The notes under the pieces: model-generated | The model's input: the letters and a program-made list of their open reading frames with translations, nothing else | What the model was told of the DNA's origin: nothing | The model's database searches: none | In this document: positions 11,154 to 35,282 of the stretch, piece after piece | How the letters are laid out: each line of letters starts with the position of its first letter | Position numbering within the stretch: position 1 is the stretch's first letter | DNA from: an uncultured Alphaproteobacteria bacterium | GTDB lineage: Bacteria; Pseudomonadota; Alphaproteobacteria; RF32; CAG-239 | Assembly: GCA_934254585.1 (NCBI GenBank) | Contig: CAKQLF010000001.1 | Location: 28,093 to 92,092 of the forward strand | Direction: 5' to 3' | Length of the DNA stretch: 64,000 nt | Made by a program: the position numbers and the translations under genes

Positions 11154-13064
11154 TTAACGACCGTGATTTATTCGTTGCAGACAATTATGTTGCGAATTTG
11201 CTGAATTATTCGGTTGCCTAACATTTAAGCATTTTTGCAAATCAGCTGCCGGAATATCTTTCATATTTTTCAACAACGTGAAATCTGTCGGTAAATTTCC
11301 TTTCATTTGACGCTTGTTCACAACACAAGCAACATAAAGTTTTAAGGCTTGTTCTTTAGTTAGGGTATCCTTAAAAATTATCGGCTTGTTTTTATTACTC
11401 GGTTCCTGTAATAATTTTATATACGCATTATATTCAGCATCTTTATTTAAGTTCACCTTGTTTTTTGCCTTATAAGATATTATGCTTTCATTTACGGCAA
11501 ATGTGTATTCGTTTTCTGTGCTTGCTAATTCTTTATATCCATCAATTTTCTGCCAATATTCTCTTAAATCTTTACTCCATTTGACAGGCTGAGGAGTCAC
11601 TATTGGCCGCGGCTGAACAAAATCGTCCGGCAAAGAGGAAATTTCCAAACCGTTTATTTGATTAATAAAACGCGGATTGTGAAGATTATCTCGCATTAAT
11701 CTTTTCGCTTCCGGCACTAACTCCGGATTAATTATTCCCCTGCTCTTATCACGATTATATTCCGTCAAACGGCGAGACAATTTTTGTTGAGACGGAATAA
11801 TTATATTTTGCCTTGCATCTGCGTCTATTTTAACCTCTTGTTCGGGACGAATCAGACTTGCTAAATTCTTTTCTTCGTAAGCTCCGGTTTGCGGATTATA
11901 TAACTTATAATGATATAAAAGCGAACGGCGAAGAAAAAATTCTTTTCTGTCATCATCACTTGGAACCGTAAGTGGAACTTTTTCCATTCGAATTAGTAAA
12001 TTATCTTTGAACTGTTGAGAATCATAGTCTTTATGATGATTTCTCTCGAATGATTTAAATGCCACATCCAGTAAAACCGGCAAATTTTGCACATATTGCA
12101 AACGCTGTCCGCGCGGCAAACCACTAACCGTCCGCACAAGCTCCTTAGCCTCGATATCAAACATCGTGAAATCATCAAGATTGCCGTTTTTCATATAGAC
12201 ATTTACCGCATTGATAATTTGCGAAAGATAGGCACTGCGTTCGTCCTCCACCTCCAGACGATAATAATCTTCAACCGACATCCTTTTTTCGGTGTCTTTC
12301 AGACTTAATCCCGCCATAAGAGCGTTATTCTTAATGTGTGTAAGCTCGTGCTTCAAAATCAATAGACGATGATTAACTGTGTTATATTCGTTTGCATAAA
12401 TATTAAATAAACTTCTCTCACGGGAATCACGAATCGAACTTACAAACTGAAAAACACTTAACGTCGGATTATTGCGCTTATTTCTTTCCCAAGAAGCAAT
12501 CAATCGCTGCATCGTAATATATTCTGCCGGCGGCAAAGTAAAATGATTTCGCACTAAAATAATTTTACGTTTATCCGTATTGACTGAAGCACGGCGTTTT
12601 GAAAAGTCTCGTATATCATATTCTTGACTAACATTGTCAAAATAAACATCATATAAATTATCTTCAGGCTCTATCTGAAAACCAAGATTTTTGATTAGTG
12701 GTGAAATTTCCATATCATCAATATGATTATCAAAGTGCAAAGTACAAGGTTTAGAGCGTATGTGTGCCGGAATATTATCGGTTGATACCTGATTTTCATA
12801 GTTATACTGTTGCTTGCGCAAATCCATACGGAATATTTCTTTATTTATAAAATTAGTATTATCAACGTCAAAGGAATCATACATTTCTTGTCCGGAATGT
12901 TGGTAGCGGACAAACAAATTAAAAAATTCAGATTGCGTGCGCTGTTCGCAAAATTGTTTATAGGCCAAAACCTTACGTCGCTTTTCAGCATCATTATTAT
13001 AGTCCAAGTTGAAAACGATAATACTATTATCTGCCGTATGCAGCAACAATTTTTCTTTGGTCAT
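11154..13064 (-). CDS. hypothetical protein with HExxH zinc-metallopeptidase-like motif (effector-like)
   Basis: 636 aa, no signal peptide. Motif LILKHELTHIKN with downstream acidic residues (SVEDYYRLEVEDE). No other recognisable domain. Inserted between mnmE and typA. Confidence 0.55.
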   Translation of the reverse strand: MTKEKLLLHTADNSIIVFNLDYNNDAEKRRKVLAYKQFCEQRTQSEFFNLFVRYQHSGQEMYDSFDVDNTNFINKEIFRMDLRKQQYNYENQVSTDNIPAHIRSKPCTLHFDNHIDDMEISPLIKNLGFQIEPEDNLYDVYFDNVSQEYDIRDFSKRRASVNTDKRKIILVRNHFTLPPAEYITMQRLIASWERNKRNNPTLSVFQFVSSIRDSRERSLFNIYANEYNTVNHRLLILKHELTHIKNNALMAGLSLKDTEKRMSVEDYYRLEVEDERSAYLSQIINAVNVYMKNGNLDDFTMFDIEAKELVRTVSGLPRGQRLQYVQNLPVLLDVAFKSFERNHHKDYDSQQFKDNLLIRMEKVPLTVPSDDDRKEFFLRRSLLYHYKLYNPQTGAYEEKNLASLIRPEQEVKIDADARQNIIIPSQQKLSRRLTEYNRDKSRGIINPELVPEAKRLMRDNLHNPRFINQINGLEISSLPDDFVQPRPIVTPQPVKWSKDLREYWQKIDGYKELASTENEYTFAVNESIISYKAKNKVNLNKDAEYNAYIKLLQEPSNKNKPIIFKDTLTKEQALKLYVACVVNKRQMKGNLPTDFTLLKNMKDIPAADLQKCLNVRQPNNSANSQHNCLQRINHGR

Positions 13065-17087: not shown

Positions 17088-18046
17088 TATTCTAACCTCG
17101 AAAAATAATCATCTACTAATTTTAACGCAACGGACAACTCATTTAACTTTGTATATTGCTCACGAAACTTTTTGGCCTCGTATAAACTTTTGACATACCA
17201 ACCAATGTGTTTACGAGATATGGCCAATCCGCCTTTTTCACCATAATATTCAACAAGTAAATGCAAATGTTTAAGCAAAATTTGCTTAATTTCGGACACA
17301 GTCGGCACAGAAGAAAGTTTATTATGACGCAAATATTCATCTGTTTGGGCTAAAAGCCACGGATTTCCCAAAACCGCACGGCCAATCATCACTCCGTCAA
17401 CTCCGCTTTCTTCCATTCTTTGCTTAGCTTTTTGAGGAGAGTCAATGTCACCATTGCCGATTACAGGTATTTTTACGTTTTCTTTTACGACTTTTATGAT
17501 ATTCCAATCCGCTTCTCCGCTATATCCTTGAGAACGAGTTCTGCCGTGCACGGTGATATATGAAGCTCCGCTTTCTTCACACATTTTAGCAAACTCCACA
17601 GCGTTAACGTGTTCATTATCCCAACCTTTGCGAAATTTTACACTAACGCTGAGCGGCGTGGCTTTTGCCACTGTTTCAATAATTTTGGCAGCACGAGGCA
17701 AATCTTTCATCAACGCAGAACCGGCCTCATTGTTTACAATTTTTTTTACCGGACAGCCCATATTTATATCTAAAGAACGCGCTCCTAAATCCGCCACCAA
17801 TTTTGCCGCCTCGGCAAACAATTCGGCATCATTTCCCACCAATTGCACCACAACCGGATAGTTTTCTGACCGCACATCAGCAATTTGCCAACTCTTGGGG
17901 TTTTTACGTTGCAACGCATTTATGGCTGCCATTTCCGCATACATATTACCTTTTCCGCACGCGGCTAAAATTTCCCTAAACGGCCTGTCGGTAACTCCGG
18001 CCATCGGAGCCAAAAAAACTTGACTGTCAAACCCGCAAAATGACAT
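17087..18046 (-). CDS. dusB: tRNA-dihydrouridine synthase DusB (NifR3 family)
   Basis: LAPMAGVTDRPFR and DINMGCP TIM-barrel Dus signature. 319 aa. Confidence 0.85.
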   Translation of the reverse strand: MSFCGFDSQVFLAPMAGVTDRPFREILAACGKGNMYAEMAAINALQRKNPKSWQIADVRSENYPVVVQLVGNDAELFAEAAKLVADLGARSLDINMGCPVKKIVNNEAGSALMKDLPRAAKIIETVAKATPLSVSVKFRKGWDNEHVNAVEFAKMCEESGASYITVHGRTRSQGYSGEADWNIIKVVKENVKIPVIGNGDIDSPQKAKQRMEESGVDGVMIGRAVLGNPWLLAQTDEYLRHNKLSSVPTVSEIKQILLKHLHLLVEYYGEKGGLAISRKHIGWYVKSLYEAKKFREQYTKLNELSVALKLVDDYFSRLE

Positions 18047-28203: not shown

Positions 28204-28244
28204 GCAAACTGTCCTAACGTCTAGCTTTGATTTGCTAAAATAGG

Positions 28245-28292
28245 TTTTATCTCCTTTAGCGTAACGATATGTTGTTATTACAAAAAAGGAGT
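28245..28292 (+). promoter_or_regulatory. possible SD-sequestering stem (RNA-thermometer-like) in leader of heat-shock operon
   Basis: Anti-SD ctcctt (28245-50) could pair with SD aaggag (28287-92) across about a 36-nt loop, upstream of the small peptide and Hsp20 genes. Confidence 0.25.
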
Positions 28293-28297
28293 AAAAA

Positions 28298-28444
28298 ATG
28301 AAAAAAGAATCTAAGTCATACGATAATAAAAAGTCATCTCAAAAAGCTCAACCAACTGTTTCTAAAGGCGGTTGCGGTTGTGGTTGCAGTGGTTCTTCCG
28401 TTTCGGAAATGGAAGAAATTGATGAAATTTCACTCAACAAATAG
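28298..28444 (+). CDS. small Cys/Gly-rich peptide (48 aa)
   Basis: Strong SD aaggag. Sequence MKKESKSYDNKKSSQKAQPTVSKGGCGCGCSGSSVSEMEEIDEISLNK. Ends 12 nt upstream of the Hsp20 gene. Confidence 0.4.
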   Translation: MKKESKSYDNKKSSQKAQPTVSKGGCGCGCSGSSVSEMEEIDEISLNK

Positions 28445-28456
28445 AGAGGCGTTTTT

Positions 28457-28936
28457 ATGAAAAATATGGCAGGTAACAGCCGGAGCCGCCATTCTGAAGT
28501 TGCCGCAGCTAATCGTCAAAACAATGACTTTGGCAGCCTTATGAATTATTTTTGGAATTATACAGATATGCCCGAAAGTTTTACCGAAGACTTGGAACCA
28601 AAAATTCAAGTAACGGAAACCAAAGACGCAATAAACGTTTCAGCAGAACTTCCGGGGATTGATGAAAATGATTTGGATTTGCAAATTTCCGCCAATGGTT
28701 ATTTAACTATTTGCGGCGAAAAGAAAAATTCAAACTCAAGTTCATCAAAAGATGCTTATTTTTCTGAAATTTCATACGGTATGTTCAAAAGAACAATTCC
28801 TTTGCCTTGGGATTTGGCTTTTGACAACGCTGACGCAACTTACAAAAACGGCGTGCTTAATGTTTTGATACCTAAAACACAGGTTGAAAAACAAAAATTC
28901 AAAAAAATTGCAATAAAAACAACTGATAAAAACTAA
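28457..28936 (+). CDS. small heat-shock protein (Hsp20 / alpha-crystallin family)
   Basis: Alpha-crystallin domain (LPGIDENDLDLQI....GVLNVLIPK). 159 aa. Confidence 0.85.
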   Translation: MKNMAGNSRSRHSEVAAANRQNNDFGSLMNYFWNYTDMPESFTEDLEPKIQVTETKDAINVSAELPGIDENDLDLQISANGYLTICGEKKNSNSSSSKDAYFSEISYGMFKRTIPLPWDLAFDNADATYKNGVLNVLIPKTQVEKQKFKKIAIKTTDKN

Positions 28937-28942
28937 AAGAAA

Positions 28943-28982
28943 AGTCTGTGTTTCAATTTTAATGGAACACAGACTTTTTTTT
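28943..28982 (+). terminator. rho-independent terminator
   Basis: agtctgtgtt-loop-aacacagact followed by T8. Confidence 0.8.
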
Positions 28983-29045
28983 ATGTGACACCCTCGCAAA
29001 CTTAATCAAAATTTAAATTATTTTATATAGATTACAGTTGAGTTT

Positions 29046-32000
29046 ATGTACAAAAACGAGGGTAAAATGTTTAAAAATAAAGTTTTAACAGAAACAACAG
29101 GTTTTGTAACGTTGATTTGTGTGGGGACATTAGCTTTGCCTACCAACTTAAAAGCCTATTATTTGCCGCCTGTTTCTTTTTCGGAAATGTATCGTTTAGC
29201 GCAAAGCGGTGATGTTGAAGCTTTAAGAGCCTCCGTCAGACGAGGATTAAATATTGATACAATTAACCAAAACGGTGATACCGGACTTTGTATAGCCGCA
29301 CGACGCCGTGATACCTATACTTACAATGCCTTTCGCGCTGCGGGTGCAAACCCTCACCACCCTTGTGTGCAGCGTATTGATTATTATAACAATTTTTTAA
29401 TTTCATCAAAGGCCGTACCTATTACCGCCACACCAAGAGAAGCTTACGGAGCTATTGGAAAAGAAACTTATAAAATTTCTTCAACAACGTGGTGGATTTT
29501 GGGAGGTCTGGCCGTTGGCGGTGGAATTGCCGCTTTAGCTATGGGCGGAGGAGGAGGCGGCGGTTCGTCTTCGGAAAAATCCAGTGAAAGCGGTATTGGC
29601 AACGTTATCGGTTCATCAGGTTCAACCCTAAAAACAACCTCTGGTTTGGCCACAAACAGTTCAGAGCTTAGTGTTGGCAATTCAAACTTATCTGAAGTCG
29701 CCGGAATAAATTTTAATAAAGATGTTATTTCCGCTGCAAAATCTCTAAATATTGCATTAAAAGCTGAAAACGGAGGTCAATATATAAACACTGCTGACAC
29801 AACCATAAATATAGGAGCCGGAGGAGCCGGTTTGGTTGCAGTTAATAACAGTAAGGTTATAAACAACGGTTATTTAAAATCAACTGAAACAGATTTTAAT
29901 GCGTCGGCAGGTATGATGGCCAGTAATAACTCCGAAGCCATAAACAATGGCAAGGGAATTATTGACAGAACAGGCGCAAACGGAATTGATTTAAAATTTT
30001 CCGGTTATAATGAAAACAACCTGATTATAGGTATGTACGCCGACACAAGTTCAAAAATAACCAACAACGGAGATATAAAAGGTTCGGCCACTCAAGCTAT
30101 TTCGGACCCGACAGCCGAAAACAAAAACAATTCTGAAAATTCTTCATCTTCCGGTTCGACAACGGCCGGCACTACTTCCGGCAACGGCACAATTGTCGGT
30201 ATGGAAACAATGATTATTAATGCCAACAAAGATTCAAGCGGAAATACTATCTATGCCATCAACGGCGAAAATGGCAATATTTCGCTGAGTGCCGGTGAGG
30301 GTATATCTTCCGGTACAGATGTAAAGCTAAACATTATTGGTATGAGTAGTTTTTTAGATAACTCTTTTCTTAATGGCAGTAAAAATATCCAACGTGCGGA
30401 AAAATCTTTTCTGGAAAATAATGGAAATATAACTCTGAGCTATACCGGTTCTTATTCCGCCGCGGCAGAAAACACTTTACGCAAAGGTCTGGGCGGAATT
30501 GTCGGTATAAGAGCTGATGCCAACACTACCGGCGTCAATAACGGCAATATAAACATAAAATTGACCGACACCACATCGTCAGCTGCAAACTCGGTTGATG
30601 TGGCGGCAGCTATGCAATCTGTTCACAGCGGTAACATAACCAATAAAAATAACATTAAAATTTCAACTTCTTCCACCAATGCCCGTATAACTTATGGTAT
30701 GATGGCCGTAGAAGGTGATGGTTCTGTTTCCGGATTATATACGGAAAATAAGCAAACTTTAGATAATATCGGCACAATAATAATGAATGCCAGTAATTCT
30801 TATGCTATGGCCTCATTCAACGGCGGAACGGTCGTCAACAATGGAACAATTACTATCGGCAACCAAGATGACAGTAATTTTGGTAAAAACACGGCAATGT
30901 ACGGTTCCGGCGACAGCTTTTTAACAACATTGAAAAATAATGGAACTATAAACGTTTACTCACAAAATTCTTACGCTATGCGCAACGACTTTAGCGGCGG
31001 AAACGTTATTTCTAATGATGGAACAATTTTTATTTCAAATTCAGCCAAAGGTTCAAATGTTTTCGGCGGAAATTACAGTAAAATTATTAATAACGGAACA
31101 ATTCAATATAAACCTGCAGCCTCAAATACTTCTGGTTCCGGCGGTTCTTCAGGTTCATCAACAACCGGCGGAACAGTTGGTGACAATTTGAATTTAACCC
31201 TTAATCAACACGTTATGGACACTAAATCTCCAACCGTTTCTTCCGTCACTTCAAGCGGTAACGAACAAGCTCTTAACAACGGAACTATTATTACAGAAAC
31301 TTCAAACACCTCGGCCATGAGTGTAGAAACTTCACAAGGTTCCGCTATTAACAACAATATTATTACAGTTGCGGCAAATAAATTAAAAGATAATGGAGTT
31401 AATGCCGGAATGTATCTTTCTGCAGATACTGAAAAATCCGCGAAAATTGTCAATAACGGACAAATAAACATTAATACTTCTTATTCCGTGGGAATGGGTA
31501 GCGCGTCTTCATATAATTCAAGAATCGAAAACGCCGAAAACGGAGTTATCAACCTTAATGCCGATAAAACCATCGGTCTTTATGCTTCGGGAAACAGCAA
31601 CTTGTTTAATAATGGCACTATAAATGTAAATAGTGATGACAGTATTGCTATTTTTTCGGCCGGAACAGGAACAGGGCAAAACAGCGCGCTTATATCCAAC
31701 AGTATTATCAATGTCAAAGGGAAAAATGCCATTATCTATCAAATTAACGGCTCTGCGGAAATAAATCAAAACGGGCGCATTAATATTGACGATTCCGTAA
31801 AATCAACTGCCACTTATTACTATGTAAACGGTTCTTTAAACTTAAAGAATATTGATTTAGGTATTGATTCCGGAAATTTTGTAAAAATCGGCTCTAACGG
31901 CAACGGAACTTTATCTATAGATGAAACAACTTCACTTTCAATCAGCAAGCAAGGAACAATTATAAACGCTGAAAACGGAGCAACATCTATCATTAATAAA

Positions 32001-33959
32001 GGAACATTAAGCTTACCAAGCGGTTCGGGAAGTTATGTTATGCTTTTAGATAAAAGTGCTAAAGCCGAAAATTATGGCACCATAAATGTTAATGGTGAAA
32101 ACAACTATGGTGTTTATATTAAGTCAGGTGAATTCAGCAATAAGAGTATAAGCACCGGCCCAGAACAACCAACTATAAATGTAAAAGGAAATAACAATTA
32201 CGGTATTTTTGCCATAAATGACGCCAAAATTACCAATGAAGGAAATATTAATGTTTCCGGAAACGATAATTACGGTTTATATTCTCAAAGCAGTGAAGAT
32301 ATAACCAATTCGGGAACAATTACCTTAACAGGTTCAAATAACTATGGTATTTATTCTGTTGCTGAAGGAAAAATAATCAACAGCGGCCGCATAAATGTTC
32401 AAGGTTCGGGAAATATTGGAATATACACCTCGCAAGCTAATGTTGAAAATAACGGAACAATTAATGTTTCCAGCGGGTCGACGGGAATAAAAGCGGAAAA
32501 AGCCGGATTAGTTAAAAATAACGGTGTTATCAACGGCAGCGGAACAGATATTGACCAACCAAGCGATGAAACTTCGCAAGCCTCTTTAGCCGCTAAAAAC
32601 TTTTTACAGGTTAAAACTAAAGGTATTATAAAAAACAATGGCCTTATTACCGCCAAAAATTTTAATTTTGACGAATCTAACGATGGAAGCGGACAAATTG
32701 TTGTTGGTAAAAACGGAACATACAAAGCACAATCACTAAGCGGAACTGTTGTTGCTGATGCCGACATTTCTCAAAACGGATTTAACACAGTCTATAGAAA
32801 TGATAATTCCTTTATCGGAAAAGACAATGGTTTAAATATCGTTTCCGGCTCTTATTTGTTTAATGCGCAAAAAGCTCTAAACAGTAATGGTAACACCGAT
32901 GTTGTTATGACAATGAAATCATTTAACGATGTAATAGATAATCAAGAATTTGCTGATTATTTAACTGAAAACTACCAAGCGCGTAAAGGTGAAGAAACAT
33001 TTAATTTGCTAAAAGGAGCAACTACCGCCCAAAGTTTTACAACTATAAAGAATAGAGAATTCGGGTTTAGTATGCTGCCAAACTTAGCAAAGCAGGATTT
33101 AGACATTTTAAACAATGTCAACCGCGCTATAAATGATGATGTTTTGGTTTCAACAACAGAAAACAGCCGCGCTAAAGTTAATGTTCTTACCTATCAGCAA
33201 AAAATAGGCAACAAGCAAGAAGTTTCCGGTTATAAAGATATGGTTAAAGCTGTTTACGGATTTAACGATTATCAAACAGCTGACAAATGGCGAGTTGGAT
33301 TTGGTGCCGCGGCGGCGCGTTCTGACACCAAATTTAACGATAATTCAAAACGTTATAACAATATATTGGAAATATTTACACCCTTAACTTATGTAAATGA
33401 CAATTTCCGCGCTATGACAAAACCTTTAATCGGTTTTGGAAAAGGTCATTATCGTCGCTTTGGCGGTAGCAATATTTATAAGGCCGACTTAACCAACTAT
33501 TATTACGGTATAAACACAGAAGCTCGTAAAACTTATGATTTAGATGCCGCACAGCTTGAACCGACTATCGGGTTTAATGTTACAAATATGCGAATTGACG
33601 GCATAAAGGAAAGCAATAACGGCTTAAAAACTGATGATGACAACGTATTGTCGGCGCAATCGGTTATAGGATTAGATATTAAAAAGGATTTTGAATTAAC
33701 TGAAAATCAAACAATTTATTTAACAGCCGGTGGAAAATATTTCTATGAATTTGGAAATAAATATTCTACACAAGCAACTTTGGGAGATTTAATAAATTCT
33801 TATAAAATAGAAAGTAATCGTTTACAGCGAAACAGCGGTTTATTAACCGTAAAAGCACAATATGAAAATAAAAATTTAGCAATAAGTGCTTCGCTTAATA
33901 AGCCTTTGGAACAAAAGAATAATACTTATTATTTGTTTAACTTAGGATATAAATTTTAA
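29046..33959 (+). CDS. autotransporter-like adhesin (type Va) with beta-helical passenger
   Basis: 1637 aa. Signal peptide (probable start at ATG 29067 after SD gaggg). One ankyrin-like repeat (NGDTGLCIAARRRD...AGANPHH), a hydrophobic Gly-rich segment and a Ser/Gly linker. About 1000 aa of N-N-G-(T/V)-I-N repeats are typical of parallel beta-helix passengers. The C-terminal roughly 300 aa beta-barrel-like region ends ...NLGYKF. Confidence 0.75.
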   Translation: MYKNEGKMFKNKVLTETTGFVTLICVGTLALPTNLKAYYLPPVSFSEMYRLAQSGDVEALRASVRRGLNIDTINQNGDTGLCIAARRRDTYTYNAFRAAGANPHHPCVQRIDYYNNFLISSKAVPITATPREAYGAIGKETYKISSTTWWILGGLAVGGGIAALAMGGGGGGGSSSEKSSESGIGNVIGSSGSTLKTTSGLATNSSELSVGNSNLSEVAGINFNKDVISAAKSLNIALKAENGGQYINTADTTINIGAGGAGLVAVNNSKVINNGYLKSTETDFNASAGMMASNNSEAINNGKGIIDRTGANGIDLKFSGYNENNLIIGMYADTSSKITNNGDIKGSATQAISDPTAENKNNSENSSSSGSTTAGTTSGNGTIVGMETMIINANKDSSGNTIYAINGENGNISLSAGEGISSGTDVKLNIIGMSSFLDNSFLNGSKNIQRAEKSFLENNGNITLSYTGSYSAAAENTLRKGLGGIVGIRADANTTGVNNGNINIKLTDTTSSAANSVDVAAAMQSVHSGNITNKNNIKISTSSTNARITYGMMAVEGDGSVSGLYTENKQTLDNIGTIIMNASNSYAMASFNGGTVVNNGTITIGNQDDSNFGKNTAMYGSGDSFLTTLKNNGTINVYSQNSYAMRNDFSGGNVISNDGTIFISNSAKGSNVFGGNYSKIINNGTIQYKPAASNTSGSGGSSGSSTTGGTVGDNLNLTLNQHVMDTKSPTVSSVTSSGNEQALNNGTIITETSNTSAMSVETSQGSAINNNIITVAANKLKDNGVNAGMYLSADTEKSAKIVNNGQININTSYSVGMGSASSYNSRIENAENGVINLNADKTIGLYASGNSNLFNNGTINVNSDDSIAIFSAGTGTGQNSALISNSIINVKGKNAIIYQINGSAEINQNGRINIDDSVKSTATYYYVNGSLNLKNIDLGIDSGNFVKIGSNGNGTLSIDETTSLSISKQGTIINAENGATSIINKGTLSLPSGSGSYVMLLDKSAKAENYGTINVNGENNYGVYIKSGEFSNKSISTGPEQPTINVKGNNNYGIFAINDAKITNEGNINVSGNDNYGLYSQSSEDITNSGTITLTGSNNYGIYSVAEGKIINSGRINVQGSGNIGIYTSQANVENNGTINVSSGSTGIKAEKAGLVKNNGVINGSGTDIDQPSDETSQASLAAKNFLQVKTKGIIKNNGLITAKNFNFDESNDGSGQIVVGKNGTYKAQSLSGTVVADADISQNGFNTVYRNDNSFIGKDNGLNIVSGSYLFNAQKALNSNGNTDVVMTMKSFNDVIDNQEFADYLTENYQARKGEETFNLLKGATTAQSFTTIKNREFGFSMLPNLAKQDLDILNNVNRAINDDVLVSTTENSRAKVNVLTYQQKIGNKQEVSGYKDMVKAVYGFNDYQTADKWRVGFGAAAARSDTKFNDNSKRYNNILEIFTPLTYVNDNFRAMTKPLIGFGKGHYRRFGGSNIYKADLTNYYYGINTEARKTYDLDAAQLEPTIGFNVTNMRIDGIKESNNGLKTDDDNVLSAQSVIGLDIKKDFELTENQTIYLTAGGKYFYEFGNKYSTQATLGDLINSYKIESNRLQRNSGLLTVKAQYENKNLAISASLNKPLEQKNNTYYLFNLGYKF

Positions 33960-34087: not shown

Positions 34088-34475
34088 ATGTCTGATTAAA
34101 GGCATATTTTCTGCCGCTACAGACGTTTTTGCAAGTTTTTTCAGAAAAAATGACATATTAAAAAATAACAAGCACAGCACGAAACTGGCAGGCGGCACAA
34201 AGCAAGCAATTCTAGCACCAGTCATTATAGGCCCTGTGCCTAGAATCTTGTTGCAACAAGGTACTAACCTAGTCAATAAATTTGCCTTATTATTACATAA
34301 GTGTCGGTTCGCACAAGATTCTCGGGACAAGCCCGAGAATGACGGTAGCTGGAGGTGTTGGCTTAGTATTTGTTACAAGTTATTTAATTACCCCTCACCA
34401 GCAGACAAGTCTGCGACCGATAAGCCATCAAAGGGTTTGGATGTCGTGCGGCAATACGCCGTGCTTTTTGAACGA

Positions 34476-34495
34476 CGTGTACAGAGTAGTACACG
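34476..34495. repeat. palindromic element cgtgtac-N6-gtacacg (copy A)
   Basis: Perfect 7-bp arms. Lies within the conserved direct repeat cgacgtgtaca...agtacacgag. Confidence 0.8.
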
Positions 34496-34588
34496 AGTGA
34501 GAAAAGCGCAAGCAGTGAACGGACAGACAAAACATATTAGAAATCTTCTTCCGCAATGTGCGTCAGATGCGACGGGATTTTTAAGCGA

Positions 34589-34609
34589 CGTGTACAAAAA
34601 AAGTACACG
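34589..34609. repeat. palindromic element cgtgtac-N7-gtacacg (copy B)
   Basis: Same arms as copy A, about 113 bp downstream and 26 nt before the pilin-like GTG. Confidence 0.8.
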
Positions 34610-34634
34610 AGCGCGAAAATTCCTAGCAGATGGC

Positions 34635-35282
34635 GTGCAGTACGGTAGAAGTATGATTGAGATGTTGGGCGTTTTGGCCATCATCGCTGTTTTGAGCGTT
34701 GGCGGTATTGCCGGATATTCTAAGGCAATGGAAAAATTCAAACTTAATAAGGCTATGGATGAATACAGCTATCTTATTTATGGGTTGCTGGAACACTTAG
34801 ATGAAATTAAATATTCCACTAAATCCAGAGACGGAAATGATACTCCTGTTGTGGAATTAGCTAATAATTTGAATTTGGTTCCTCCGACATGGACAATGAT
34901 AGCAAACAATCTTAATGTTAGTCATAAAAATTTATTTGAAGACCCATATAACAATCTTTTATCTATTTACTCAAAAAACGGAAATTTGCGTTTTGATTTT
35001 ATTTTAGGCGGTTCGCAATTTAAGGACGAAGGTTCTTGGATAACTGAAAATTTTTCAACCAAATTCTGTATGGAATTGGTAAACAATGTTGTCAAACCAT
35101 TGCATTCTTCTTTGGAATTTTTATTTTTTTACAGGTCAAAAGGAAACTCATCCACTTTTTATGGTGATAAGAATTGTTCTTCCGGACGCAAATGTTTGAG
35201 TGATATCAGTATAAAAGAAGTGTATGATAATTGTAAACGTTGCTCAAAAAAAGAAGTTTGTTCAGTAACTATAGACTTTTAA
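34635..35282 (+). CDS. type IV pilin-like protein, paralog 1 (class-III-signal-like N-terminus)
   Basis: Track ORF 34236..35282. The start is reassigned to in-frame GTG 34635 because DNA conservation with paralog 2 begins exactly there (gtgcagtNcggNagaagtatgat). N-terminus ..G-RSMIEMLGVLAIIAVLSVGGIAGYSKAMEK has Glu at +5 of the hydrophobic segment. The C-terminal Cys motif CSSGRKCL...CKRC...EVCSV is shared with paralog 3. Confidence 0.55.
   Translation: MQYGRSMIEMLGVLAIIAVLSVGGIAGYSKAMEKFKLNKAMDEYSYLIYGLLEHLDEIKYSTKSRDGNDTPVVELANNLNLVPPTWTMIANNLNVSHKNLFEDPYNNLLSIYSKNGNLRFDFILGGSQFKDEGSWITENFSTKFCMELVNNVVKPLHSSLEFLFFYRSKGNSSTFYGDKNCSSGRKCLSDISIKEVYDNCKRCSKKEVCSVTIDF

Follow-up and report, generated by a model that had tools for sequence, protein, structure and literature searches.

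Why should the gene for a small heat shock protein (sHSP) be preceded, at a distance of only a few nucleotides (nt), by a short open reading frame (ORF) whose product is rich in cysteine and glycine? This question is raised by a stretch of 64,000 nt from an uncultured gut alphaproteobacterium (contig CAKQLF010000001.1), here called the window, in which such an ORF of 48 codons is found next to hsp20. A first-pass annotation had described the ORF with its strong Shine-Dalgarno (SD) sequence and a gap of 12 nt between its stop codon and the ATG of hsp20. All of this is present, and the translation of the ORF, MKKESKSYDNKKSSQKAQPTVSKGGCGCGCSGSSVSEMEEIDEISLNK, is identical to the peptide given there. 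As to function, that annotation had thought of a metal-binding peptide, of a precursor of a ribosomally synthesized and post-translationally modified peptide (RiPP), and of an RNA thermometer in the leader. Our own answer, which we hold tentatively and with somewhat less than even confidence, is that the small ORF is the first cistron of a two-gene heat-shock operon and codes for a disordered, thiol-based accessory of the sHSP; it would not be a RiPP precursor, and its leader would not contain a conserved thermometer.

The small ORF is not peculiar to the window. A scan seeded with Hsp20 and performed on one genome per species returned 65 loci. After exclusion of two non-alphaproteobacterial loci and of two that are cut off upstream, 61 informative loci remained, and in 59 of these an ORF of 41-55 amino acids (aa) ends 0-20 nt 5' of hsp20. 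All 59 relatives carry AGGAG or GGAGG 5-9 nt before the ATG. The ratio of non-synonymous to synonymous substitution rates (dN/dS) in four subgroups is 0.10, 0.21, 0.27 and 0.21, and thus selection acts on the amino-acid sequence itself, beyond the mere presence of an ORF. The recurrence goes beyond chance because the same architecture is found in 59 related loci and is accompanied by purifying selection. By this pattern of conservation, the 48-codon ORF is a genuine protein-coding gene under purifying selection. The exact window peptide is recorded in 212 blocks of a public assembly collection, and identical peptides are encoded on contigs from human (Hadza) and other gut metagenomes. The two exceptions among the 61 loci are L073, which has no ORF at this position, and L072, from a more distant alphaproteobacterium. 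In the latter (L072:3655-3937) the promoter motif described below is followed by a divergent 62-aa ORF, located 63 nt upstream of hsp20, with a single His-Cys and an acidic tail (EEEVVEVEEEWDY). This ORF may be a divergent homologue with one cysteine only.

The first-pass annotation had proposed a search for homologues, and these exist, although the family is a narrow one. In addition to those in 59 of the 61 related loci, 120 relatives were obtained when 5.8 billion clusters were searched with a profile; they are short, domain-free and either unnamed or named 'hypothetical protein' without exception. In an exhaustive HMMER scan of 1.84 billion representatives, only 24 clusters were matched. 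The mini-protein itself has already been called as a 'hypothetical protein' by gene callers; it is contained in no curated family and matches no Pfam or NCBIfam family above the cut-off. Judged by homology, it is a member of an undescribed family of 41-55 residues, apparently confined to uncultured gut and rumen Alphaproteobacteria.

Within this family, identity to the window peptide drops to about 25-40% while the architecture is retained. An M-K start is followed by a basic, Ser/Lys-rich N-terminal half, by a G-C-x-C-(G/S) core (GCGCGC, GCCCG, GCHCG, GCRCG and CDC variants, and CxxxxC in one lineage), and by a tail which is usually acidic with alternating Ile, Val or Met. The mean net charge is +3.7 before the cysteine motif and -3.7 after it. 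Met1, Cys26 and Cys28 are invariant or nearly so (Cys26 is invariant in both alignments, A1 and A2; Cys28 is invariant in A2 and conserved to at least 90% in A1). The basic N-terminus, (GC)3 core and acidic tail listed by the first-pass annotation therefore hold for the family only in part: the two charge halves recur, but the tail is only usually acidic, and the (GC)3 repeat is restricted to the closest relatives, a single CxC being found elsewhere. The composition is extreme (25% Ser, 15% Lys, 16% Asp plus Glu, 3% aromatic residues plus Leu). AlphaFold2, run on an alignment of 38 sequences, gave a predicted local distance difference test score (pLDDT) of 58 and a predicted template modelling score (pTM) of 0.11, with no secondary structure, and the mini-protein is predicted to be intrinsically disordered. 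One variant with a His-rich N-terminus (MHMVDGEHGHCHGHAHDHEHCHEHTHDHSHEGCGCGC..., L021:404-568) was set aside as support for metal binding, as it is a probable chimeric assembly. Its likeness to the relatives begins exactly at the GCGCGC codons (position 497 of L021) and the 496 nt upstream are unrelated; the contig is binned as [Ruminococcus] gnavus, and the variant protein is absent from a collection of 15 billion sequences. The two parts were probably joined at the GGCTGCGGCTGC repeat.

The downstream gene codes for a bona fide Hsp20 (PF00011, E 2.3e-17, 63.4 bits against a cut-off of 20.8 bits) with an alpha-crystallin domain and a C-terminal IxI anchor (KKIAI in the window, KKIx[I/V/L] in relatives). 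This C-terminal motif is kept in 60 relatives, and the anchor, EKQKFKKIxI, is basic throughout. Across contexts, Hsp20 is the sole constant neighbour of the small ORF, and a single Hsp20 subfamily is involved throughout. Look-ups seeded with distant peptides again led to an HSP20 gene immediately downstream, with different flanking genes. In the group of the window and its neighbours, the pair is flanked by a gene for an FAD-dependent oxidoreductase on the upstream side and by one for a BigA-type autotransporter on the downstream side; in the group with the GCCCG core (group C), accA and a terminator are found upstream and a convergent methyltransferase gene downstream. Co-transcription of the small ORF with hsp20, as assumed in the first-pass annotation, is well founded: the promoter motif is located 5' of both genes, the hsp20 SD lies over the stop codon of the small ORF, and the only terminator sits 3' of hsp20, none being found between the two genes. 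GGAG-type sites of hsp20 at or overlapping the small-ORF stop are also found in relatives, an arrangement typical of translational coupling, which may thus operate here. We consider it very likely that the small ORF and hsp20 form a single transcription and translation unit. The features of the locus are compiled in Table 1.

Table 1. Coordinates of features at the hsp20 locus, numbered from the first nucleotide of the window.
Feature	Position	Strand	Remarks
Sigma-32 (RpoH)-type promoter-like motif, CTTTGAT-N15-TTATCT	28225..28252	+	conserved geometry in relatives
-35 box CTTTGA	28225-28230	+	followed by 16-nt spacer
-10 box TTATCT	28247-28252	+	
CTCCTT ('anti-SD' of the first-pass annotation)	28251..28256	+	overlaps -10 box and discriminator
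Weak 5'-proximal hairpin of the predicted mRNA	28261..28278	+	minimum free energy (MFE) -3.1 kcal/mol, z -0.12; SD not included
SD sequence of the small ORF, AAGGAG	28286..28291	+	6 nt 5' of ATG
Small protein gene, 48 codons	28298..28444	+	basic Ser/Lys-rich N-terminal half, CxCxC core, acidic Ile-rich tail
Codons Cys26-Gly-Cys28-Gly-Cys30	28373..28387	+	Cys26 and Cys28 correspond to the C-x-C of the family (alignments A1, A2)
Stop codon TAG of the small ORF	28442-28444	+	
SD-like GAGAGG of hsp20	28444..28449	+	shares the last base of the small-ORF stop codon
hsp20, 159 aa	28457..28936	+	PF00011; conserved basic C-terminal anchor EKQKFKKIAI (IxI motif)
Intrinsic terminator, 10-bp stem AGTCTGTGTT/AACACAGACT, then T8	28943..28982	+	read from sequence

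The small ORF and hsp20 share a reading frame in the window, so that read-through of the TAG would yield ...SLNK-x-RGVF-MKNMAG...; this frame relation is not kept in relatives (gaps of 0-20 nt). Another variable trait is the peptide tail, which is Ser/Lys-rich instead of acidic and Ile/Val-containing in seven loci (L026, L029, L031, L032, L034, L041, L044). Exactly these seven loci code for an Hsp20 with an extension of 12-20 residues after KKIxI (171-181 as compared to 155-164 aa).

About 54 of 59 related leaders share a bipartite motif of 28 nt, CTT[T/A][G/A]A[T/A]-N15-[T/A]TAT[C/T]T, with invariant spacing and with invariant positions C, T, T in the first half and T, A, T,., T in the second. 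In 1.39 Mb of fetched loci, the strict version occurs 57 times, 49 times before the peptide ORF and once before the divergent ORF of L072. The window copy, CTTTGA-N16-TTATCT, is closer to the RpoH motif of R. etli and S. meliloti (cTTGaa-N16-CgATaT) than to the SigA motif (cTTGAc-N16-cnATAA; PMC4167512). The motif fits an alphaproteobacterial sigma-32 promoter, and transcription would then start at about 28258-28261, 6-8 nt past the -10 box. In the GCCCG group, the upstream gene has a strong terminator hairpin which reaches to within about 8 nt of the -35 box, and therefore there is no room for another promoter. No terminator was found between the upstream FAD-oxidoreductase gene (which ends at 28203) and the promoter in the window or in its closest relatives.

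A hairpin beginning 3-9 nt past the -10 box was found in about 45 of 52 distinct leaders (mean z -2.07, per-sequence folding against shuffles), being weakest in the window itself. The stems are unrelated to each other (GTAACA/TGTTAT, GTGAAAAC/GTTTTTAC, AAGGGC/GCCCTT, GTCCAT/GTGGAC) and never include the SD. RNAalifold did not find a consensus for this region in a MAFFT alignment, loop and stem lengths being too different. The hairpin could be a stabiliser of the mRNA at its 5' terminus.

We propose that the operon consists, in this order, of a sigma-32-type promoter, a short 5' untranslated region with an accessible SD, the small ORF, hsp20 and the terminator, and that the mini-protein would be produced in step with Hsp20 as a thiol-based accessory of the sHSP. 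Its CxC pair would bind soft metal ions (Zn, Cu(I), Cd) between chains and/or cycle between dithiol and disulfide, its acidic hydrophobic-x-hydrophobic tail would touch the basic KQKFKKIxI anchor region or a groove of Hsp20, and thiol or metal stress would as a result be coupled to the holdase. The link between mini-protein and Hsp20 may be a physical one: a hydrophobic-x-hydrophobic motif amid acidic residues is present in 48 of 57 tails, the anchor of Hsp20 is basic throughout, and the seven loci with Ser/Lys-rich tails are those with the extended Hsp20. Since no motif other than Cys-x-Cys is invariant, a thiol or metal-binding role seems the most plausible. In this respect the resemblance to metal-binding peptides, pointed out in the first-pass annotation, is upheld, although the cysteine content of a metallothionein is not reached.

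A number of points weigh against this proposal. With 2-3 cysteines per chain, the mini-protein is far below a classical metallothionein, and therefore metals could be bound, or disulfides formed, only between chains. The position between the two cysteines is free to vary (G, C, H, R, D, N, S), one lineage has CxxxxC instead, and about nine lineages lack the acidic hydrophobic tail. Hsp20 does not offer a conserved cysteine as a disulfide or metal partner (Cys86 is present in 18 of 60), and a natural fusion of peptide and Hsp20 was not found among the best 120 Hsp20 relatives (124-181 aa, at most 77% coverage of a concatenated query). The joint occurrence of Ser/Lys-rich tails and Hsp20 extensions may go back to a single phylogenetic event. 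As to the promoter, the strict motif is not significant in the window alone (one hit, with 0.88 expected) and has its weight because it is conserved in relatives, not because of the window count; its assignment to sigma-32 and the putative start site were both derived from fit to sequence. The function, finally, is deduced from motif logic and gene linkage.

A more specific version, which we consider decidedly unlikely as it stands, is that the mini-protein might be a dedicated regulatory subunit of the sHSP which senses thiol state or metals. Its acidic I/V-x-I/V tail would dock on the beta4-beta8 groove or on KQKFKKIxI, and the state of the CxC pair (monomer or bridged dimer) would set oligomer size and holdase activity. 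If true, this would be a two-component bacterial counterpart to redox activation of the Hsp33 type and to BAG3-HSPB8 docking. Hsp33, folded and about 33 kDa in size, carries its own redox switch, a zinc centre of CxC plus CxxC. Common to both is a CxC thiol centre tied to a holdase chaperone in oxidative or heat stress, but here a separate chain of 5 kDa, predicted to be disordered, carries the thiol motif, and there is no homology. In eukaryotes, the IPV motifs of BAG3 bind the beta4-beta8 groove of HSPB6/HSPB8. There, too, a partner offers a hydrophobic-x-hydrophobic motif similar to the IxI anchor of the sHSP itself; again there is no homology, and the bacterial tail motif that would do the docking has acidic flanks, not neutral or basic ones.

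Small CxC units that bind Cu(I) or Zn(II) are well known. CxC motifs coordinate Cu(I) in trafficking proteins, the CxCxxxxCxC motif at the C-terminus of CopY binds Zn(II) and Cu(I) and its dimerisation is driven by metal, and MymT of M. tuberculosis is a Cu(I) metallothionein of 4.9 kDa (PMC7558416; PMC12648655). The mini-protein differs from MymT and CopY in having a single CxC (2-3 Cys) per chain, in lacking a family match, and in being linked to a chaperone instead of to copper export or a metal sensor. Nor does it qualify as a metallothionein of the SmtA/BmtA or MymT type, with three cysteines in 48 residues (6%), 2-3 in relatives, and no match to Pfam or NCBIfam. When compared to sHSP operons of Proteobacteria (ibpAB of E. 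coli and the ROSE-controlled hsp operons of rhizobia), the locus resembles these in having an Hsp20 gene in a short operon with a heat-shock-type promoter, but the first cistron codes for a 48-aa CxC protein and not for a second sHSP, a ROSE element is not detectable, and the SD is predicted to be open. The first gene is without counterpart in ibpAB or in the ROSE-controlled operons.

sHSPs are commonly seen as self-contained holdases, with the dynamics of their own oligomers determining how active they are. If the proposal is true, a co-translated partner with a reactive thiol pair would provide an external redox or metal input to sHSP function. It would also provide a testable example of what one of the human gut microbiome's many unannotated small proteins might do, in organisms (uncultured gut and rumen Alphaproteobacteria) about whose stress biology next to nothing is known.

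Two alternatives survive best, each of them unlikely in our view. According to the first, the mini-protein is a generic disordered protectant, similar to a hydrophilin or a 'Hero' protein, which by its highly charged, Ser-rich chain shields clients or the sHSP in a non-specific way, with the cysteines not being the functional centre. The predicted disorder, the extreme Ser/Lys/Glu composition, the charge dipole and the heat-shock-type co-expression suggested by the promoter would all be in accordance with this. However, the two cysteines are the only invariant residues besides Met1 in a family whose members otherwise share only about 30% identity, which argues that they are essential.

The second alternative concerns the leader. 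The first-pass annotation had noted that CTCCTT in the leader can pair with the SD AAGGAG. Both are present and complementary, but they are located at 28251-28256 and 28286-28291 and not at 28245-50 and 28287-92. The correction of CTCCTT by 6 nt matters because CTCCTT thereby falls on the -10 box TTATCT. As part of UUUUAUCUCCUUU (28244-28256), CTCCTT pairs with 28283-28296 in a duplex of -10.8 kcal/mol. This pairing is modestly above shuffles, 4 of 200 of which fold as well. Complementarity between -10/discriminator and SD is seen in several separate lineages (the window, L012, L018, L052, L054, L062, L065, L068, L069), and the type of anti-SD tracks the local SD, CUCUU or CUCCUU being found with AAGGAG and CCUCC with GGAGG.

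This complementarity may have a purpose if the anti-SD is embedded in the promoter: only transcripts that read through from the upstream gene would carry the -10/discriminator and have their SD blocked, so that translation would require the operon's own heat-shock promoter. The window and its closest relatives, which lack a terminator upstream, are the loci with the strongest complementarity, and the predicted helix behaves like a static block in being stable and unaffected by temperature. On the other hand, the L054 clade is equally complementary despite a strong terminator immediately upstream, several terminator-less relatives have no complementarity, and the pairing may merely reflect a pyrimidine-rich discriminator beside AT-rich flanks. 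Lack of an upstream terminator was tried as a predictor of anti-SD strength and fails for the L054 clade. If functional, pairing between -10/discriminator and SD would be an unusual coupling of translation competence to promoter choice.

It is improbable that the same pairing acts as an RNA thermometer, in which the CTCCTT stretch sequesters the SD and melts upon heat shock to allow temperature-dependent translation of the small ORF and hsp20. When 28244-28312 is folded, the SD is indeed sequestered (MFE -12.0 kcal/mol, z -2.63), and complementarity like that of the window exists in the closest relatives and in L052. In the clade of L054, L062, L065, L068 and L069 the complementarity suits a different SD (CCUCC:GGAGG, AUUUCCUCCAA versus UUGGAGGUAAAU), and in L054 the helix would close the whole leader (L054:3705-3840, -44.1 kcal/mol, z -5.56). 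However, CTCCTT overlaps the -10 box and discriminator of the conserved promoter, and is therefore upstream of the predicted start and probably absent from RNA made from this promoter. In RNA folded from the predicted start (about 28259), the probability that the SD is unpaired is 0.83, 0.89 and 0.92 at 30, 37 and 42 C. With the anti-SD transcribed it is 0.03, 0.04 and 0.04; no melting is predicted, and therefore the helix, if transcribed, resembles a static block rather than a thermosensor. Complementarity to the SD is absent in about half of 56 leaders, being strong in group A, in L052 and in the L054 clade. ROSE, fourU-type and other Rfam families gave no match in window positions 27000-30000 (E up to 10) or in 12 related loci (gathering score); sub-threshold, weak matches to hairpin-containing families cluster at the terminator behind hsp20. 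With an SD predicted to be open, no Rfam match and a pairing that is not family-wide, the SD-sequestering thermometer put forward in the first-pass annotation is not supported.

Very improbable is a role of the small ORF as a cysteine-sensing leader peptide, where ribosomes would pause at the Cys codons when Cys-tRNA is scarce and thereby unmask the ribosome binding site (RBS) of hsp20. There is a precedent for this in mycobacteria, where polycysteine short ORFs control operons by ribosome stalling (bioRxiv 10.1101/834739), and in both cases clustered Cys codons occur in a short ORF ahead of an operon. Here, the Cys codons are the conserved feature, with three in a row in many members (GCCCG), the small ORF is directly 5' of the gene to be regulated, and the MFE structure of the window pairs the hsp20 start region, weakly (z -1.97), with codons just 5' of the Cys codons. 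But the mycobacterial ORFs are leaderless, while the small ORF has a leader and a strong SD, and there is no conserved structure that sequesters the RBS. In 58 loci the probability of the hsp20 RBS being unpaired is 0.46, as compared to 0.44 in codon-shuffled controls, so that there is no excess of pairing, and the pairing partners are inconsistently placed relative to the Cys codons. Both ends of the peptide, N-terminus and tail, are conserved (dN/dS 0.1-0.27), as one would not expect if the ORF were purely regulatory, and in all loci the gene that follows is hsp20, a chaperone gene not related to cysteine or sulfur metabolism.

The idea of a RiPP precursor, either of the type of thiazole/oxazole-modified microcins (TOMM) such as microcin B17 or modified by a radical-SAM enzyme, with the basic N-terminal half as leader and a modified Gly-Cys-Ser core, is hardly credible: the Gly-Cys-Ser-rich stretch after a charged N-terminal part, with its (GC)3-Ser/Gly core, is a trait of the window copy and its closest relatives, the repeat is not conserved and is elsewhere reduced to GCCCG, GCHCG, GCRCG or CDC, purifying selection covers the whole peptide including the tail, and the sole constant neighbour is a cytoplasmic chaperone. 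A sub-threshold match to the radical-SAM-modified lachnocin family (NF038169, 18.7 bits against a cut-off of 40 bits, E 0.0012) is obtained for the window copy but for no other member, and is driven by composition. Genes for YcaO, McbC-like dehydrogenase, radical-SAM, lanthipeptide or ABC-export proteins were not found in three synteny contexts or among the Pfam-scanned ORFs of the window (30 further ORFs of 180 aa or more, spread over about 0.7-63.5 kb, 10 of which are without a Pfam family); those with a match code for housekeeping proteins such as BipA, TrkA, Dus, Rho, CoaE, MnmE/G, PPDK and DnaE. This bears out the remark in the first-pass annotation that cyclodehydratase and dehydrogenase genes are not nearby.

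Some other genes of the window deserve mention. Directly downstream of the operon, 29046-33959 (+) codes for a protein of 1637 aa with BigA-type autotransporter domains (PF27415/PF27417, according to the contig annotation), the length of which varies from 1630 to 1638 aa between strains. On the opposite strand, 25354-26097 (-) codes for a multi-EF-hand protein of 247 aa which seems to begin with a signal sequence; a secreted calcium-binding protein of this kind would be unusual in a gut alphaproteobacterium. The adjoining gene (26107-26493, -) codes for a double-zinc-ribbon protein of 128 aa with a hydrophobic segment at its C-terminus. Five ORFs have no Pfam match at E <= 1e-5: 11154-13064 (-, 636 aa), 18046-20157 (-, 703 aa), 22518-23531 (+, 337 aa), 23532-24950 (+, 472 aa) and 34236-35282 (+, 348 aa). 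The ORFs of 337 and 472 aa abut, and this pair is kept in all contigs of the same species.

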